Assembly: GCA_026392265.1 (NCBI GenBank)
Contig: JAPLCL010000074.1
Span: 1 to 44,535, forward strand
DNA from: Actinomycetota bacterium
GTDB taxonomy: Bacteria > Actinomycetota > Thermoleophilia > UBA2241
Direction of reading: 5' to 3'
DNA length: 44,535 nt
Part shown: positions 6,368-43,045 of the stretch, one piece after another
Layout of the letters: each line of letters begins with the position of its first letter
Numbering within the stretch: position 1 is the first letter of the stretch
Made by a program: the position numbers and the translations under genes
Notes under the pieces: model-generated
What the model saw: the letters and a program-made list of their open reading frames with translations, nothing else
Database searches by the model: none
What the model was told of the DNA's origin: nothing

Positions 6368-7716
6368 TCCGTGTGGCGATGGCGCTTTGCCTGCTTGTGT
6401 CGCTTGCCGGCTGCGGTACCGGCGGCTCAGGCGCGACCGGCGCCGGCCCCACCGCCGATGCACAGAGCCCCGACGGGCTGGTCAGTGAGACTACGGGCGC
6501 CACCTCCTCCTCCACCGCCACGCCCGTGGCCACAGCCGACCGCGCCGAGATCGAACGCCGGCTCGCGCTGCCGCGCTTCACCTACGTGGCCGAGTCCGAA
6601 GGCCAAGGCACCGCGAAGCCCTTCGGCGCTCTGGCCTTCATCGATTCCGAGACCGACACGCTTGCCTTTCGGCCACACATCGGCAGTGATCTCGGGCGCG
6701 TCGCCGTGGCCCCCGACGGCCGGCTCATCTACGTCACCGACGAAGACGAGCCCGTGGTGTGGGTGGTCGACGCCTAGACTCACGAGAAGGTGCGCAGCAT
6801 CCGCCTGCCCGGGGTGAGCCCGCACAAGTCGGGCGCCAAGACCGCCACCGGCAAGTACACGTACGAATCCCTGCTGCCGTGCTCGTCGGCGGTGGCCTGC
6901 ACGCCCGACGGCGCCCTGGTGCTGGTGCTCTCGCAGGCCGGCCTGCAGGTCATCGACACTGCCTCCGCCGAGGTGGTGCGCACGCTGCCCGAACTGCGTA
7001 GTGGTAACGAAGTGGCGGTGAGCTTCGACGGCAAGCATGCTTTCATCGCCACCGTGGACTCCCTGACCCGCGGCAAGCACACCATGCTCGAGTGGGTCAA
7101 GATGTCCATCGCGGGGGTGGGCGGCGGCCTTGCCCTGCTCGACCTCGAGACCTGGCAGGTCGTGAAGCGCGTGAAGTGCGGGGAGGTCGGCGGGATCGCC
7201 GTGGACCCTGACGACAGCCGCATCTTCTGCAGCGACTTCAAGCTCAAGGCGCTGCGTATCGTCGACCCGGTCACGCTGGCCGACATCGCAGTCGTGTCCC
7301 TGAAGTCGGCCAAGGCCCAGTACTTCCAGCCGCGGGGTGTGGGCGTGCTGCCCGACGGCAGCAAGGCCTACGTCGTCTGCGCCGCGGTGATGCCGACCAG
7401 CGGGCAGATGACGTCGGCGGCGACCGCAGGTGCGACCCCCGACTTGTTCTTCTGCGCGGTGGTCAAGACGGAGTCGCAGGAGGTCATCAAGCGCATACCG
7501 CTCGAAGCCTACTGACCGATCTACATCGCCATCCGGTCGGATGGCACCAAGGCGTACCTCTCGGGCGGGCCGATCTGCCACACTGTGGTCATCGACACCG
7601 TCAAGGACGTCGTCCTCGGCGACATCGGCAAGAAGCTGGTGCAGACGGGTGGCGCGGCCGTGCGGCCGTTCTGGTGGTCCACGGCTTGCATGGAGGTGCT
7701 GGGCGAGGGCCAGTGA
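6331..7716 (+). pseudogene. YVTN-type beta-propeller lipoprotein interrupted by an in-frame TAG (6775-6777) and an in-frame TGA (7513-7515)
   Basis: ATG 6331 follows GGGGGAGG. Lipobox LVSLAGC. ORFs 6316..6777 and 6790..7515 are in the same frame, as is the untracked stretch 7516..7716. The repeat consensus runs straight across both stops: LIYVTDEDEPVVWVVDA*THEKVRSIRLPG and IPLEAY*PIYIAIRSDGTKAYLSGGPICHTVVIDTVKDVVLGDIG. The final TGA is at 7714-7716. Confidence 0.75.
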
Positions 7717-7745: not shown

Positions 7746-8912
7746 CTACGCCTCGAACGACCCCTTGCGCAGCGCCTCGCCGTCGCGCACCATCCACTGT
7801 CCGCCGGCGATCACATGACGCAGGCGCAGATCCTCGTCGAGCACTATAAGGTCGGCATCGGCGCCGGCCGCGATGTGCCCCTTGCCCCGCAGCTTGAGGA
7901 TGTCGCCGACGTTCGTGGAGACGACGCGTACGGCCTGATCGATGGGCAGGCCCTCGTCGCGGACGGCGTCCACGAACTCGCGGAAGATGGAGGCCGGCTC
8001 CCCGGTCTCGAGCTTGGCCAGCTCGCCGGCTTCGTCAAATGACGGCAGCGACCCGCAGCCGTCCGAGCTCATCGTGATGTGCCCGATTGGCACCCCGGCG
8101 GCCAGGAGTTGCACAATCGCCGCCGATGGCTTCACTTCCTCGTCGGGGAAGTAGGGATACGAGCTTGCGGTGATGTCCAGGTAGCCGTCGCGGCCATACT
8201 CCAGCGCGTCCGCGAAGACGGCGGCGCTGCGGTTGACGTGCGTCGGCAGGAACTGCGTCGCTTTGAGCTCGCTGCGCCGCACCACTTCACGGACGATCTC
8301 GAACGGCCGTTCGCCGTCGCCCAGGTGCAGGTTCACGATGCCGGCCTTACCGCCGAGCATGCCGCCCACGCGCGCGTGGGCGGCGAGGCGGATGAGTTCG
8401 TCCACCGTGGGGCCGGACGAGCGGTGATCGGCCACGGCGATCTCGCCGACGCCGATCACCTCCTCGATGAGTGCGATGTCGCGGCCGACGTCACCGAGCA
8501 GGGTGGGCGGCGGCACCTGATAGGCGCCGGTGTAGATCCAGCAGCTCACGCCCTCGGCGCGCAGCTCCTTGGCCTTCATCAGCAGGCCCTCAAGCGAGCG
8601 CGTGAAGCCGTCCGTGCCCAGGGCACCGATCACAGTGGTGATACCGCCGGCGAGCAGCTGGCTCAGGCGCAGCTCGGGCGTACGGCTCGCCGGGCCACCT
8701 TCGCCGCCGGCCCCGGCGATGTGTACGTGGCCGTCGATCAGGCCGGGCAGCGCCAGCAGGCCCCGGCCGTCTACGACGTCCACCTCGACGCCGCGTGGCG
8801 GCGTGATGCCCGGCGCCACGCCCACCACTCTCCCGCCGGCGAGCAGTACGTCGCTGCGCCCCAACGGCTCGGGTGCGTACACATCGATGTCGCGAAGCAG
8901 GATCACGGCCAC
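7746..8912 (-). CDS. iadA: isoaspartyl (beta-aspartyl) dipeptidase, amidohydrolase superfamily
   Basis: ILLRDIDVYAPEPLGRSDVLLAGGRVVGV...LPGLIDGHVHIAGAGGEGGPASRTPE is the IadA-type N-terminus with the HxH metal motif. The likely start is GTG 8912 (or 8906). The upstream part of ORF 7746..9071 overlaps the cphA promoter and start and looks non-coding. TAG stop. Confidence 0.75.
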   Translation of the reverse strand: MAVILLRDIDVYAPEPLGRSDVLLAGGRVVGVAPGITPPRGVEVDVVDGRGLLALPGLIDGHVHIAGAGGEGGPASRTPELRLSQLLAGGITTVIGALGTDGFTRSLEGLLMKAKELRAEGVSCWIYTGAYQVPPPTLLGDVGRDIALIEEVIGVGEIAVADHRSSGPTVDELIRLAAHARVGGMLGGKAGIVNLHLGDGERPFEIVREVVRRSELKATQFLPTHVNRSAAVFADALEYGRDGYLDITASSYPYFPDEEVKPSAAIVQLLAAGVPIGHITMSSDGCGSLPSFDEAGELAKLETGEPASIFREFVDAVRDEGLPIDQAVRVVSTNVGDILKLRGKGHIAAGADADLIVLDEDLRLRHVIAGGQWMVRDGEALRKGSFEA

Positions 8913-37904: not shown

Positions 37905-38882
37905 ATGACCGCGGCGATCCTCACCCAGCGTCTGACGAAGACGTACGGCCGGCAGCGCGGCATCGTCGACCTCGATCTCGAGGTCCCGCCAGGCCGCGTG
38001 TTCGGATTCCTCGGCCCCAACGGCGCCGGCAAGTCGACGACCATTCGCGTGCTGCTGGACCTCATCCGGCCGACCACGGGACGGGCCGCAGTGCTCGGCC
38101 TCGACAGCCGCCGAGACGGCGTCGCGATCAGGCGGCGCAGCGGGTACCTGCCCGGCGAGCTGAGCCTCTACGGGCGGCTCACCGGGCACGAGACGCTGCG
38201 CTACTTTGCCAACCTGCGCGGCGGCGTCGACTCGGGTTACGTCGACGATCTGTGCCGGCGCCTCGACTTCGACGCCGGCAGAAGGGTCGCCGACCTTTCG
38301 ACGGGCAACAAACGCAAGCTCGGTCTGATCCAGGCGTTCATGCACAGGCTGGAGCTGCTCATCCTCGATGAGCCCACGTCCGGCCTCGACCCGCTGGTCC
38401 AGCACGAGTTCTACCACCTGGTCTAGGAGGCCGGCGAGGCCGGGCAGACGGTGCTCCTCTCGTCGCACGTGCTCCCCGAGGCACAGCGCGCGTGCGACAC
38501 CGTAGCCTTCGTGCGCGAGGGCACGCTCGTTGCCATCGAGGACGTGGGCGAGCTCACCGGACGGGCGCTCCGCGAGATCGAGGTGACGTTCGCCGCGCCG
38601 GTGCCCGCCGCGGCATTTCTCGGCGTCTCCGGCGTGACCGCGGTCGTCGAGAACGGCACCGAGGTCCCGCGTGCCGCCGACCGCCATACGCTGCGCCTCA
38701 CGGTGAGCGGTCCGCTCGACGCCGCCGTCAAGAAGCTCGCCCAGTTCGACGTCGTCACGCTGACCAGCCGTGAGCCCGACCTTGAGGACGTCTTTCTCGC
38801 GTTGTACGGCGAGAACCCGGGGTACTCCGCGCCGGCCGCGTCCGGCGCAGGCGCCGGGGAGGAGGCCGGCCATGTTGCGTGA
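37905..38882 (+). pseudogene. ABC-2-type transporter ATP-binding protein interrupted by an in-frame TAG (38424-38426)
   Basis: Walker A GPNGAGKST, signature LSTGNKRK and Walker B LLILDEPTSGLD lie before the stop. The H-loop block QTVLLSSHVLPEAQRACD lies after it in the same frame (ORFs 37905..38426 and 38451..38882). The junction reads FYHLV*EAGEAGQTV. Confidence 0.8.
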
Positions 38883-39265: not shown

Positions 39266-40051
39266 ATGGGGTCCCGACGAGTCTCGCTTGTCGACCTGGG
39301 GCGTGCCGTCGGCGACGGCTGGTGCGCTTTTGTGCGTGGGGCCGCGCGCGGTGAGGCGCTGCTGATGCCGGGCGGTAGCCTCGGGATCGGTGGCGAGGCG
39401 TTCGCCGACATGAACTTCGGCTACGTGTTCGGACCCGAAGGGGTCGGCGCCGCCATGCGCCGCTTCGAGCGCCTGCTCCGCGAGCGACGGCTGCCCGGCA
39501 CGATCGCCGTCATCTCGCCGGCGGCCGAAGAGGCCGCTCAGGCGGCCGCCGTTCTCGGCCTCGACTCCCCGGGGTCTATCCCGCTCATGTGCGCGCACTC
39601 CGCGGACGTGCGGCACGTCGACCATGGGTACGTCGTGGAGCGCGTCTCAGACCTCAGCGGCATCATGGACGCCGCCGAGGTTCTTGGAGACGCCTATGAG
39701 ATCCCGCCGGAGTGGATCCGCTCCATGCTGGGACCGAGGCTGCCCGACATGCAGAGCGCCGACGTGTTCCTCACGCGTCGCGACGGCCGGGCGCTGTCCG
39801 CCGCGGGGACTGGTCGTAGCGGGGCCACCGTGGGCATCTACGCGGTGGGGACGCGGCTGGCCCATCGCCGCCGTGGGGCCGCGGCCGCGGCGGTGTCCGC
39901 CGCCCTCGACCATCACGTGCGCACGGGCGCCCATCTTTTCGGTCTGCTTTCGGACCCTGCCGCGGAATCGCTCTACGCGGGTCTGGGCTTCTCCGTCGTG
40001 GATCACGCCCAGATATGGCGCGTCGAAGAGCGGCGAGCGCAAGCCGGCTAG
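39266..40051 (+). CDS. GNAT-family N-acetyltransferase
   Basis: ATG 39266 follows GAAGGGAG. The acetyl-CoA motif A context is GIYAVGTRLAHRRRGAAAAAVSAAL...AESLYAGLGFSVV. Confidence 0.6.
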   Translation: MGSRRVSLVDLGRAVGDGWCAFVRGAARGEALLMPGGSLGIGGEAFADMNFGYVFGPEGVGAAMRRFERLLRERRLPGTIAVISPAAEEAAQAAAVLGLDSPGSIPLMCAHSADVRHVDHGYVVERVSDLSGIMDAAEVLGDAYEIPPEWIRSMLGPRLPDMQSADVFLTRRDGRALSAAGTGRSGATVGIYAVGTRLAHRRRGAAAAAVSAALDHHVRTGAHLFGLLSDPAAESLYAGLGFSVVDHAQIWRVEERRAQAG

Positions 40052-41070
40052 ATCCAGCCCTGCTTCTTGAACAGGATGAGCATGACGATCACGGCGAGCA
40101 CCTGCGTGGCCAGCCCGAAGGTGAGAAAGGCGGTCCAGCCGGTGATGTTGAGCACCAGCCGGCCGAAGTTCATCCCGAAAAACCCCGTGATCCAGGTCAG
40201 TGGCATGAAGATGGTGGCCACGATGGTCAGCCGTTTCATCACGACGTTGAGCCTGTTCGACACCGTCGACAGGTAGACGTCCATCGTGCCCGACGTCAGG
40301 TCGCGGTAGCTGTCGATGAGGTCGCTGGTGCGGATCAGGTGGTCGTAGCCGTCGCGGTAGGAGCGCTCCGCGTCGGGCGACATGCCCGGGATCTCGACCA
40401 CGCCCGTGGCGATGCGCGCGAAGAGGTCGCGCTCCGGGGCGATCACCTTGCGTAGACTCACAAGCGTGCGCTTGATCGCGAAGATCTCCTGGAGCTGGGC
40501 GTCGTCCGGGGCCTCGAACACGCGGTCCTCGATGGCGTCGATGCGGTCGTCGAACTCGCTGAGCAACGGGAAGAAGCTGTCTGCCAAGGCATCGACCACC
40601 GCGTAGAGGACGAAGGCCGCATTGTCGGTGTGGAGATGGTGCGAGGTCATGCGCGTGCGCAGGTCGCTGAACGCCGGGCAGTCGTCGTGATGAACGGTCA
40701 CGAGGTAGTGCTCGGAGAGGAAGCAGTGCACCTCGACGAGGTCGTCCTCGTCGCGGTTCGCGCCGTAGACCACCAGCATCACGTAGTCGTCGTAGGTGTC
40801 GAGCTTCGGGCGCTGGCCGAAATGCTCTGAATCCTCCAGCGCGATCGGATGGAAGCCGAATACGTCGCGCAGCAGCGCGAGGCCTTCGGCGTCGGGTCCG
40901 TGGATGTCGAGCCAGAAGAAGCTGCCGGCCCGGAGACGCGACGCAACGGCGTCGCGGTCGGCCGGCACGACGGCGCTGTCGGCGTCAACAAGGGACAGGC
41001 TGGACAAGCTTGGCGTGACTCCTCCTTGGGCGCGGGTCCCCACGGATGCTACTCCCGGCCGGGCCGACAA
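40048..41070 (-). CDS. corA: CorA-family Mg2+/Co2+ transporter
   Basis: The C-terminal LTIVATIFMPLTWITGFFGMNFG carries the GMN motif, and two terminal TM helices are present. The start is uncertain (TTG 41070, or TTG 41007 downstream of AAGGAGGAG). Its stop overlaps the GNAT stop in CTAG. Confidence 0.85.
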   Translation of the reverse strand: MSARPGVASVGTRAQGGVTPSLSSLSLVDADSAVVPADRDAVASRLRAGSFFWLDIHGPDAEGLALLRDVFGFHPIALEDSEHFGQRPKLDTYDDYVMLVVYGANRDEDDLVEVHCFLSEHYLVTVHHDDCPAFSDLRTRMTSHHLHTDNAAFVLYAVVDALADSFFPLLSEFDDRIDAIEDRVFEAPDDAQLQEIFAIKRTLVSLRKVIAPERDLFARIATGVVEIPGMSPDAERSYRDGYDHLIRTSDLIDSYRDLTSGTMDVYLSTVSNRLNVVMKRLTIVATIFMPLTWITGFFGMNFGRLVLNITGWTAFLTFGLATQVLAVIVMLILFKKQGWI

Positions 41071-41141: not shown

Positions 41142-42155
41142 GTGGCGAATCGTCGCGCCCGGCGTCGGCCGACGGCGCGTCCCACCTCCCTGCTCCTCAT
41201 CCTTATCGCTCTGCTGCTTGCCTTCCGTGTCGCGGCGGCGCCTGCCTCGGCCCACGAGGATTGGGAGCACGGTGGAGCCAAGCAGTCGACCCGCGACAGC
41301 AGCGGGTGTCACAAGGACAAGCCTGCCTCGAACACCGCCTACGTGGGCCGCCACTCCGGCCACACGACGTCCGGCTCGCAGATGTGCTGGGATTGCCACG
41401 AACCGGGCTCAGCCACGTCGGTGAGTTGCGGCCGGGACTGCCACCTCTTCCAGGCCAGCGGCGACCACGGCGCCTACCCGACCGCCTTCTCGCACGGAGT
41501 GACCCCCCATCTCGGCGCCTCGGGGTATGGCAAGACCTGCGCCGACTGCCATGACGCCGGGAACCCGCATCATGATGCCTCCGCGGGGCCCGCGCCCGCG
41601 TGCGCGACCTGCCACAATGGCACCTACGCCGCGGTGCCCGCCGGTCACGAGGGTCGCGGCACCGTGTGCACGGCGTGTCACGTCGGGATGAACCGCCCGG
41701 TCAGCGACTGCGCCTCGTGCCACGTCGGTAACGCGAGCTCGGGCGGGCCGCAGATCGTCTACTCGAACTCGCCGGCCTGCGGCGACGCCGGCTGCCACAA
41801 TGCCGCCACCTTCGGCGCCGTGGCGTGCACCACGTGTCACAGCAAGACCGGCGCGATCGGCCAGGAGACCCTGCATGCCACGGACCCGGCCGCCACGGTG
41901 AGCTGTACGACCTGCCATGAGGCGCACTACGAGACTCTCGGCGCCTGCGACACGTGTCATGGGAGTCATGCCCAGACGCATCACGGGACGGCCACGTTGG
42001 CCGACACGCAGCTGAAGCTGGCGGCCGGGCCGTCGAAGATCAGAGCCCACAGGAAGGCCATGCTCACGGGGACGCGGCAGGCGGGGGATACCGCGCTCGC
42101 CTTTCAGTCTGTCCTTGTCCAGGCGCGGAAGCTCAAGGGTGGCCCGTTCAAGTAG
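41142..42155 (+). CDS. secreted multihaem c-type cytochrome (8 CXXCH plus one CX3CH and one CX4CH)
   Basis: GTG 41142. Signal peptide RRARRRPTARPTSLLLILIALLLAFRVAAAPASA. Haem motifs: CWDCH, CGRDCH, CADCH, CATCH, CTACH, CASCH, CGDAGCH, CTTCH, CTTCH, CDTCH. The ORF ends at TAG 42153-42155 inside what looks like a beta-sandwich domain. Confidence 0.8.
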   Translation: MANRRARRRPTARPTSLLLILIALLLAFRVAAAPASAHEDWEHGGAKQSTRDSSGCHKDKPASNTAYVGRHSGHTTSGSQMCWDCHEPGSATSVSCGRDCHLFQASGDHGAYPTAFSHGVTPHLGASGYGKTCADCHDAGNPHHDASAGPAPACATCHNGTYAAVPAGHEGRGTVCTACHVGMNRPVSDCASCHVGNASSGGPQIVYSNSPACGDAGCHNAATFGAVACTTCHSKTGAIGQETLHATDPAATVSCTTCHEAHYETLGACDTCHGSHAQTHHGTATLADTQLKLAAGPSKIRAHRKAMLTGTRQAGDTALAFQSVLVQARKLKGGPFK

Positions 42156-42310
42156 GTCGCCGTCGTCACGACCGACGCCGACGGTCGCTTCAGCCGTGTG
42201 GTCAAGCCGTGGGTGGGCACCGAGAACCGTGCCGTGTGGCGTCCCACGGTTGCCTACGTCGCTCAGCAGAGGGCGGCCGCTGTCAGGTCAAGCTTCGCGT
42301 GCACAAGTAG
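42156..42310 (+). other. in-frame continuation of the cytochrome ORF past the TAG (rest of an Ig-like/carboxypeptidase-regulatory-like beta-sandwich domain)
   Basis: The same frame after the TAG reads VAVVTTDADGRFSRVVKPWVGTENRAVWRPTVAYVAQQRAAAV. This completes the pattern begun by LTGTRQAGDTALAFQSVLVQARKLKGGPFK. A -1 shift near 42275 would give the typical ending VKLRVHK*, with TAG at 42308-42310. Confidence 0.45.
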
Positions 42311-42457
42311 CGTCGGTGCCTCTGCTCGTGGCGACCATTCGACGCCCGTCGCCGCGTCGTGTATACTCCCCTGCGCCATCAAGAGGGAGCTTGCGAGCAC
42401 CCCACCCTGCGCCTGTCACCGGCCGACAGGGTCCATCACGAGAAAGGAGATCGTGAG

Positions 42458-42481
42458 GGCTCGCCGTTGGCGAGCCTTTTG
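42458..42481 (+). terminator. rho-independent terminator-like hairpin upstream of infC
   Basis: GGCTCGCC-gtt-GGCGAGCC is followed by TTTTG. It is preceded by AAAGGAGATCGTG. Confidence 0.5.
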
Positions 42482-42520
42482 CCGTATATGGGTAGACCAT
42501 TTTCTCCAAGAGACAAGTTC

Positions 42521-43045
42521 ATGCGGGACCGGGCCAACGAGGTCCGCATCCGCATCAACGACGGCATCACGGTGCCGCAGGTCCGTCTCATCGACGAGAA
42601 GGGCGAGCAGCTCGGCATCAAGCCGATAGCCTTCGCCCAGGAGTACGCCGCCGAACACAACCTCGACCTCGTCGAGGTGGCCGCGCAGTCCGATCCGCCG
42701 GTGTGCCGGATCATGAACTACAGCAAGTATCGCTACGAGCTCGAGCTCAAGGCCAAGCAAGCGCGCAAGCACCAGAGCCAGATCGTGATCAAGGAGATCA
42801 AGTTCCGGCCCAAGGTGGGCGTGCACGACTACGAGACCAAGAAGGGCCACGTGGTGCGTTTTCTGCAGCACAAAGACAAGGTCAAGGTCACGATCATGTT
42901 CCGCGGCCGTGAGATGGTCCATCCGGAGCGCGGCGAGATGCTGCTCTTGCGGCTCGCCGAAGACGTCAAGGAATTCGGCATCATCGAGTCCAAGCCCCTG
43001 CAAGACGGGCGCAACATGGTCATGATGCTGGGGCCGGTCAAGTAG
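42521..43045 (+). CDS. infC: translation initiation factor IF-3
   Basis: [74 protein letters not shown] and VTIMFRGRE support the call. ATG 42521 is preferred because codons upstream (from ATG 42488) are GC3-poor. The start is uncertain, as is often the case for infC. Confidence 0.9.

Follow-up and report, generated by a model that had tools for sequence, protein, structure and literature searches.

Gram-positive metal reducers such as Thermincola potens and Carboxydothermus ferrireducens carry multihaem cytochromes in the cell wall and at the cell surface, which have been proposed to act as electron carriers across the wall. In Geobacter sulfurreducens, the dodecahaem 'nanowire' cytochrome GSU1996 (PDB 3OV0) is built of tandem c7-like modules, resembling the c7 trihaem protein PpcA. 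Multihaem cytochromes of the extracellular-electron-transfer type have also been reported in 8 of 19 metagenome-assembled genomes (MAGs) of Thermoleophilia from boreal lakes (bioRxiv 10.1101/2022.03.26.485925). Here we analysed a cytochrome gene at 41142..42310 of a 44,535-nucleotide window (the whole stretch of DNA studied; contig JAPLCL010000074.1, assembly GCA_026392265.1) from an uncultured member of Thermoleophilia. The original prediction, made from the letters of this stretch, had described an eight-to-ten-haem protein whose tail is cut by an in-frame TAG; homologue alignment and genomic orthologues instead reveal a shrunken copy of a family with 17-29 haems, and we consider it likely that the window gene is a copy of an accessory multihaem cytochrome gene that was inactivated recently and is now decaying.

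The family to which it belongs is small, with only 42 relatives recovered from 5.8 billion proteins searched, and is found in one genus of uncultured Thermoleophilia (Actinomycetota). In an intact member, a Sec signal peptide is followed by c7-like haem modules in series, bearing 17-29 motifs in all, and by a C-terminal immunoglobulin-like (Ig-like) sandwich of ~100 residues; the intact set used here comprised P0002-P0016, L016, L018 and L022. Close homologues span 464-583 aa with 17-19 haem motifs and all finish in ...V(K/R/E)LRV(R/H)(K/Q), and genomic copies in MAGs labelled 'uncultured Thermoleophilia bacterium' reach 23-29 motifs. Across the family the motif count varies naturally from 11 to 29, the short natural variant P0013 (373 aa, 11 motifs) retaining a complete tail domain and both N-terminal haem sites, and one CX3CH plus two or three CX4CH sites are conserved throughout. 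Searched against solved structures, the family profile found GSU1996 best (3OV0, E 3.9e-5), followed by PpcA (E 2e-4), so the haem part is best described as a chain of c7-like modules.

The window copy was aligned to its homologues with the stop and the frameshift marked X, and showed the following features:

41142..42155, plus strand: cytochrome open reading frame (ORF), GTG start to TAG, 337 aa with 10 haem-binding motifs (P0001, 100% self-match)
41142..41252, plus strand: putative signal peptide with a basic n-region, a LLLILIALLLAF core and an AxA site (ASA, then HE), kept in homologues; read from sequence and alignment
41292..41294, plus strand: CGC (Arg51) in place of the first Cys of haem motif 1 (C-x4-CH); Cys in every homologue, TGC in G043
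41340..41351, plus strand: TAC..CGC (Tyr67, Arg70) in place of both Cys of haem motif 2 (CxxCH or Cx4CH)
41778..41798, plus strand: CGDAGCH and the junction of an in-frame gap
41988..42310, plus strand: C-terminal beta-sandwich (Ig-like) tail, twice interrupted; from alignment, an AlphaFold model of P0003 and Foldseek
42153..42155, plus strand: in-frame TAG in mid-sandwich; Lys in close homologues (P0003 K471), AAG in G013 and G043
42156..42285, plus strand: 43 more tail codons in the original frame, untranslated unless the TAG is suppressed
42285..42286, plus strand: site of a 1-nt deletion outside any homopolymer (window GTCA-GGTCAAG versus GTCACGGTCAAG in G013)
42287..42310, plus strand: last beta-strand and the family's own stop (VKLRVHK, TAG), out of frame

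The frame that remains open still reads as a cytochrome. It holds 21 Cys and 27 His, with eight CXXCH motifs (residues 82, 133, 154, 176, 190, 229, 255 and 269) and two variant sites, CGRDCH (CX3CH) at residue 96 and CGDAGCH (CX4CH) at residue 213, both among those conserved in the family. This count is exactly the one originally proposed for 41142-42155, and the profile searches for multihaem families called for at the time returned matches above threshold to Cytochrome_C7 (PF14522; 35.6 bits, cut-off 24.8) and Cytochrom_c3_2 (PF14537; 31.7 bits, cut-off 25) in Pfam. The MtrC/MtrF domain II/IV family (PF22113) scored 16.1 bits, below its cut-off of 30, and the protein is not a member. By Pfam score and motif count the ORF is a putative multihaem c-type cytochrome, with haem attachment predicted, and its N-terminus, read by eye, looks like a Sec-type signal peptide.

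Within this frame, the two N-terminal haem sites (motifs 1 and 2) are destroyed, as the alignment shows, each of the three Cys-replacing codons being one base from TGC. Directly after CGDAGCH, the copy is missing 129 residues with 7 motifs relative to the 19-haem homologues, and 210 residues with 11 motifs relative to G043, with the end points of the gap coinciding with repeated Cys-His codons. The seven-motif gap by itself is not a lesion, because module number varies naturally, as P0013 illustrates. A leave-one-out comparison was based on 72 columns without variation among the 14 other members: the window copy breaks 6 of 72 (C>R, C>Y, C>R, L>R, Y>N and P>A), whereas the other members break 0-4 each, with milder changes apart from a C>T in P0016. 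The window gene occupies the orthologous position, but has neither the uninterrupted frame nor the invariant haem cysteines of an intact member.

A second group of lesions lies in the tail. Residues 420-521 of P0003 are modelled by AlphaFold as 8-9 strands with a predicted local distance difference test score (pLDDT) of 72-90, and Foldseek finds resemblance to macroglobulin, Ig-like, CARDB and SoxZ sandwiches; the haem domain in the same model has pLDDT <50 and is uninformative, as expected because haems are not modelled. As first noted from the sequence, the stop at 42153 falls inside an Ig-like domain, and VKLRVHK can be reached only by changing frame; the alignment and the P0003 model bear out the sandwich, and comparison with G013 exposes the 1-nt deletion. 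Because the TAG falls in the middle of this predicted 8-9-strand sandwich, the truncated tail cannot fold as it does in relatives. Orthologues ending at the equivalent of 42155, which would have made the stop a natural terminus, do not occur: close homologues have Lys there and read on to VKLRV(R/H)K, and distant homologues have other residues or a gap. Past the TAG the same frame reads VAVVTTDADGRFSRVVKPWVGTENRAVWRP... / VAVVTTDADGRFSRVV..., and 130 nt beyond it comes the deletion, after which neither the last strand nor the natural TAG stop is in register. Pfam gave no match to CarboxypepD_reg (PF13620) in the window tail or the P0003 tail, and distant homologues scored 30.9, 25.3 and 21.5 bits, all under the cut-off of 32.3.

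The gene's position allowed its fate to be followed in relatives. Its locus is bounded by two conserved anchors:

40048..41070, minus strand: corA, the divergent upstream neighbour, bounding the conserved locus on the left (Pfam labels the syntenic gene CorA)
42340..43045, plus strand: infC leader and infC, the right anchor, 88-97% identical at the DNA level across five species of the genus

The genus comprises at least 46 species genomes, of which 29 were examined for an orthologue (E <1e-40); only about 8 of those 29 have one. The corA/infC neighbours recur in G008, G013, G017 and G043. Wherever both flanks could be read the orthologue sits between corA and infC, G020 being rearranged and three loci showing one flank only, as in G019 (the infC side, within the stretch taken) and G023 (the corA side, at a contig end).

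Close relatives keep the cytochrome gene, have reduced it to a stub, or have lost it, a series drawn from the nearest genomes, in which corA is 87-91% identical. The gene of G043, a five-contig and probably long-read assembly, encodes 23 motifs and shows a single frame change close to its 3' end. In G013 the gene is down to its final 120 codons, which contain a separate frameshift; promoter, signal peptide and nearly every haem site are gone. Only 218-283 bp separate corA from infC in G018 and G046, where no cytochrome gene is left, and in G042 corA is missing too. Because the window copy and the G013 remnant have no lesion in common, the two inactivations are independent. No intact paralogue able to compensate for the window gene was found in the assembled genome of the window (G000).

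Frame breaks in other relatives were considered as further independent cases of decay (G017, G019, G043, P0008 and P0021/P0026) and rejected, since they come from few-contig or 'contig_N' assemblies, one of which splits corA. Several frame changes also occur in the cytochrome genes of L017, L021, L023, L024 and L077, with corA split as well in L077; these are probably long-read indel errors, which makes these relatives unreliable for pseudogene calls. Beside the cytochrome remnant, the infC leader (42340-42520) is nearly identical to that of G013 and far better conserved than the cytochrome sequence adjoining it. A search of the whole window against Rfam, the leader included, returned no family at threshold.

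Taken together, the kinds of change in the window copy and the comparative series make decay of this gene the likely explanation. The ancestor would have been a much larger secreted cytochrome gene, with 19 to 23 haems, positionally orthologous between corA and infC. Two haem sites have gone through three Cys substitutions, and a seven-motif block is lacking; a Lys (AAG) codon in mid-tail has become TAG, and 130 nt further on a 1-nt deletion has shifted the frame ahead of the final strand and the natural stop. This leaves 337 aa in frame, with 10 haem motifs and one half of the sandwich, probably free of selection for the family function. Because codon bias is intact (GC content at third codon positions, GC3, is 0.86 within the ORF and 0.80 in the same frame past the TAG), such decay would be recent.

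Several observations weigh against this interpretation. The 337 codons remain uninterrupted, begin with a good signal peptide and have the high GC3 just given, and in-frame loss of haem modules is natural in the family, as the 11 motifs of P0013 attest. The genus has a pyrrolysine system, so that TAG need not stop every ribosome, and both the TAG and the deletion are known from the assembly, a MAG in 428 contigs totalling 2.4 Mb, with 85% completeness and 3.3% contamination. Rates of evolution add to these points. Pairwise ratios of nonsynonymous to synonymous change (dN/dS) were 0.37-0.60 with the window copy versus 0.39-0.82 among uninterrupted copies, and the window copy's branch length, 0.283, falls among those of its sisters (0.14-0.33); no rate signal of relaxed selection is thus seen, since dN/dS does not set the window copy apart. 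Against the G013 remnant the ratio was 0.33 over 115 codons. The flanking genes gave 0.06-0.15, and the whole cytochrome family evolves fast; dS in the cytochrome pairs was 0.5-1.1, near saturation. Because the rate tests do not discriminate, the argument for decay is built on what kinds of change occurred and on the comparative series.

A secreted product of ~300 residues with 10 haems and no folded tail domain could serve as a soluble or wall-trapped electron carrier, in which case the locus would have been remodelled rather than left to decay. The open frame, the conserved signal peptide, the strong codon bias and the lack of excess dN/dS or branch length all fit such a product, as does the natural precedent of the shorter P0013, and the genome has both Ccm machinery and other multihaem genes, so that the protein could mature. 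Yet P0013 and every other full-length member keep the full tail and both N-terminal haem sites, whereas the window copy has changed three invariant Cys together with an invariant Leu, Tyr and Pro and is left by its stop with half a beta-sandwich, and its nearest relatives are losing the gene or already lack it. We therefore regard a working truncated cytochrome as unlikely.

The alternative that the stop is not fully a stop required an assessment of pyrrolysine (Pyl) decoding in this lineage. PylSc scored 314.8 bits in G000 (cut-off 178) and exceeded the cut-off in 30 of 31 genus genomes, and PylB reached 414 bits, also over its cut-off. The two sites recorded for this machinery in G000 are:

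G000:C104:171-896, minus strand: pyrrolysine machinery
G000:C4:1284-2309, minus strand: pyrrolysine machinery

In the contigs of the 85%-complete genome no PylD scored above cut-off, and no pylT was found by structural scan. Our own structural scan did find a tRNA with anticodon CUA and tRNA-Pyl architecture about 4 kb from pylS in G012 and G007 (GGGGGGTCGATCG...GGGCTCTAAACCC...CTCCCCGCCA in G012; L057, G012:C3, about 868200-868270; G007 copy L058, G007:C1), and G012 also has a PylSn-like ORF; ARAGORN and Rfam reported nothing for tRNA-Pyl, including at these two tRNAs. The genome has a very large methylamine/quaternary-amine methyltransferase repertoire, with 37 MttB-family matches, four of which carry one in-frame TAG, and at least 4 MtbB-like genes with TAG at a conserved DG(L/Y)*VG.GD site (asterisk, stop). 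Genes of the MttB/MtbB type are spread over many contigs (for example C317, C279, C309, C370 and C408; C31, C76, C275 and C309). The trait is already published for the host lineage: Actinobacteriota MAGs express Pyl-type mttB and mtbB, with genus RBG-16-64-13 the most active methylotroph of the phylum (PMC10805028), and PylRS has been reported in two Actinobacteria (PMC9630628). The host genus can thus probably read TAG as pyrrolysine, and because it carries this machinery TAG 42153 is ambiguous.

TAG is also an ordinary stop in this genome, where it terminates about a quarter of long ORFs and serves as the cytochrome family's own stop. Under G000 codon usage, single-base nonsense mutations are expected to be 69% TAG, 15-20% TGA and 11-17% TAA, so ordinary decay would be expected to yield an amber stop. 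In five other ordinary genes of G000, a Pfam domain continues across a single in-frame TAG; they encode an ABC ATPase, an FAH-family hydrolase, a family-5 solute-binding protein (SBP5), an amidohydrolase and an amine-oxidase-type enzyme. The sites were recorded as follows:

window 38424-38426: lone TAG in the ABC ATPase gene
C213:14126-14911, minus strand: lone-TAG site
C350:5775-6929, minus strand: lone-TAG site
C50, TAG at 8857, plus strand: lone-TAG site
C8, minus strand: lone-TAG site

In the FAH hydrolase, SBP5 and ABC ATPase genes, orthologues 77-93% identical have a sense codon at the TAG site. Besides the cytochrome, the Pfam-confirmed interrupted genes comprise five with TAG, one with TGA (phosphofructokinase) and one with a possible TAA; the resulting TAG:TGA:TAA ratio of ~6:1:0-1 fits the mutational 69:15-20:11-17.

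Against this background, TAG 42153 might be at least partly decoded as pyrrolysine, a near-neutral replacement of Lys after which translation would enter the remaining tail. The Pyl genes of G000 and of nearly all its relatives, the tRNA-Pyl-like tRNA of G012 and G007, the TAG-bearing MttB-family and MtbB-like genes and the expression reported for Actinobacteriota MAGs all lend weight to this idea, as do the identity of the replaced residue, the 43 codons of family sequence still present past the TAG and the five ordinary genes with a lone TAG. The comparative evidence points the other way: the codon occurs in no orthologue and is unique to G000, the nearest two copies having AAG; the other lone TAGs checked (FAH, SBP5 and ABC ATPase) are likewise unique to G000; the ratio of stops among interrupted genes matches plain mutation; and neither pylT nor pylD turned up in the assembled G000 contigs. 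A ribosome reading through would moreover run onto the deletion, and its product would end without the last strand and with ~115 residues from the wrong frame, reaching 42629 and overlapping infC. The suggestion that the stop may be read through, made in the original prediction, thus gains a basis in the genus's pyrrolysine system, while the uniqueness of the TAG and the wrecked domain end tell against it. TAG 42153 is probably not a pyrrolysine codon by design. That amber codons are leaking into ordinary genes and are partly suppressed by Pyl-tRNA, with the cytochrome made as a Pyl-containing, C-terminally altered protein, appears quite unlikely to us, and partial decoding of this particular codon as a near-neutral Lys replacement very unlikely.

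Three related observations from this survey stand apart. A genome-wide excess of 'open + coding-like after stop' frames following TAG relative to TGA (odds ratio ~1.9) was rejected as evidence, because it is confounded by antisense ORFs, same-frame neighbouring genes and true Pyl genes, and because the mutation spectrum itself predicts 69% TAG. On the minus strand of C350 (stop 6874 on the reverse complement), a TGA occupies the first CxxC position of a thioredoxin-fold gene (...DFWTYG*INCIHVLP...), with Thioredoxin_8 spanning the stop, and looks like a candidate selenocysteine codon. Within the window, an in-frame TAG at 6775-6777 interrupts an apparent YVTN-type beta-propeller lipoprotein (...PVVWVVDA*THEKVRSIRLPG...), where Pfam did not bridge the stop.

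Finally, it is highly improbable that low coverage or mixed strains in the metagenome assembly created the lesions and that the real gene is intact but shortened: G000 is indeed a fragmented MAG (428 contigs, 85% complete, 3.3% contamination) in which several well-conserved genes have a single stop absent from close relatives, and related long-read MAGs clearly hold spurious frame changes (in one, corA is split), but the two independent disabling changes lie within 130 nt with the deletion outside a homopolymer, the three Cys replacements and the other invariant-site changes are ordinary substitutions rather than error types, and a sister genome shows an independent, further advanced loss at the same locus.

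Decay of the window gene does not imply a host without cytochromes. G000 can make cytochromes c by maturation system I (Ccm), with CcmC at 107.9 bits and CcmF/NrfE at 249.5 bits, the latter cut by a contig end. On C181 (L002), ccmC (WGVWWAWEPR) is followed by a partial CcsB-like gene, and the 3' end of a hydrophobic membrane-protein ORF without a family match lies at the expected place of ccmB; on C301 (L001 801-2283), a divergent ccmE precedes ccmF. The CcmE-like protein scored 63.9 bits, below cut-off, and ends in ...CPSKY rather than the usual His-xxx-Tyr. Cys-type CcmE is a variant known from archaea and from Desulfovibrio, whose cytochromes also use CX4CH. The original prediction had rightly seen no maturation genes in the window and had expected system II; ResB was not found in the assembled genome, system I genes are present instead, and the ccm genes on C181 and C301 remove the possibility, raised at the time as fatal to a functional cytochrome, that the genome has no maturation system.

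Other multihaem ORFs of G000, apparently uninterrupted, lie on C199 (three in a row), C29, C315, C319 and C108. The three adjacent ORFs at C199:303-3866 (plus strand) have 17, 11 and 16 haem motifs, and similar clusters occur in L025 and L027. They are the nearest paralogues of the window gene, at 32% identity, and none of the multihaem ORFs named is a close one. Neither Omp85 nor LpxC was found in the genome (85% complete), consistent with the monoderm context first suggested by the window's gene content, and the host cell looks monoderm, without an outer membrane. Haem number, secretion signal, Ig-like tail, this apparently monoderm context and the published gene counts for Thermoleophilia together suggest that intact members may act as a wall-associated or extracellular electron conduit.

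Collectively, these results indicate ordinary gene loss at the window locus, which should not be counted among the working electron-transfer genes of the organism. The family itself, with 17-29 haems and an Ig-like tail, comes and goes at a fixed corA-infC site and is a candidate wall-spanning electron conduit, of a kind barely described in this apparently monoderm lineage. An in-frame TAG in this genus also calls for a case-by-case test before it is named pseudogene or recoding, by orthologue conservation, an intact downstream frame and the expected mutation spectrum; for the window gene these tests favour decay.

Comparison with described systems places both the lesion and the family. For the lesion, the closest parallel is Thg1 of Methanosarcina acetivorans, in which Heinemann and co-workers reportedly described, in 2009, a non-essential Pyl codon that arose by neutral evolution. 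Like the window gene, thg1 is an ordinary non-methyltransferase gene with an in-frame TAG in a Pyl-equipped organism, but its frame is intact to the normal end and its product has been reported to contain Pyl, whereas the window TAG precedes a frameshift and is known from sequence. The tail resembles carboxypeptidase regulatory-like and bacterial Ig-like domains (PF13620, PF16640 and PF02369) in being a beta-sandwich of ~85-100 residues, yet reaches the cut-off of no Pfam family, and for the window and P0003 tails Pfam returned no match of any kind. The decahaem outer-surface cytochromes MtrC/OmcA of Shewanella share with the window ORF a complement of about ten haems and a weak Pfam match to MtrC/MtrF domains; the ancestral haem number and domain order of the window gene differ, however, and the PF22113 score is below cut-off. 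The cytochromes of Thermincola potens and Carboxydothermus ferrireducens are, like this family, large, secreted and multihaem in cells without an outer membrane, a likeness of description. GSU1996 and PpcA share with the family tandem c7-like modules and dense CXXCH motifs. The similarity to them is weak and local: the Thermoleophilia family differs in its 17-29 motifs, its conserved CX3CH and CX4CH sites and its Ig-like C-terminal sandwich, and its host is apparently a monoderm actinobacterium, in which the window copy is broken.

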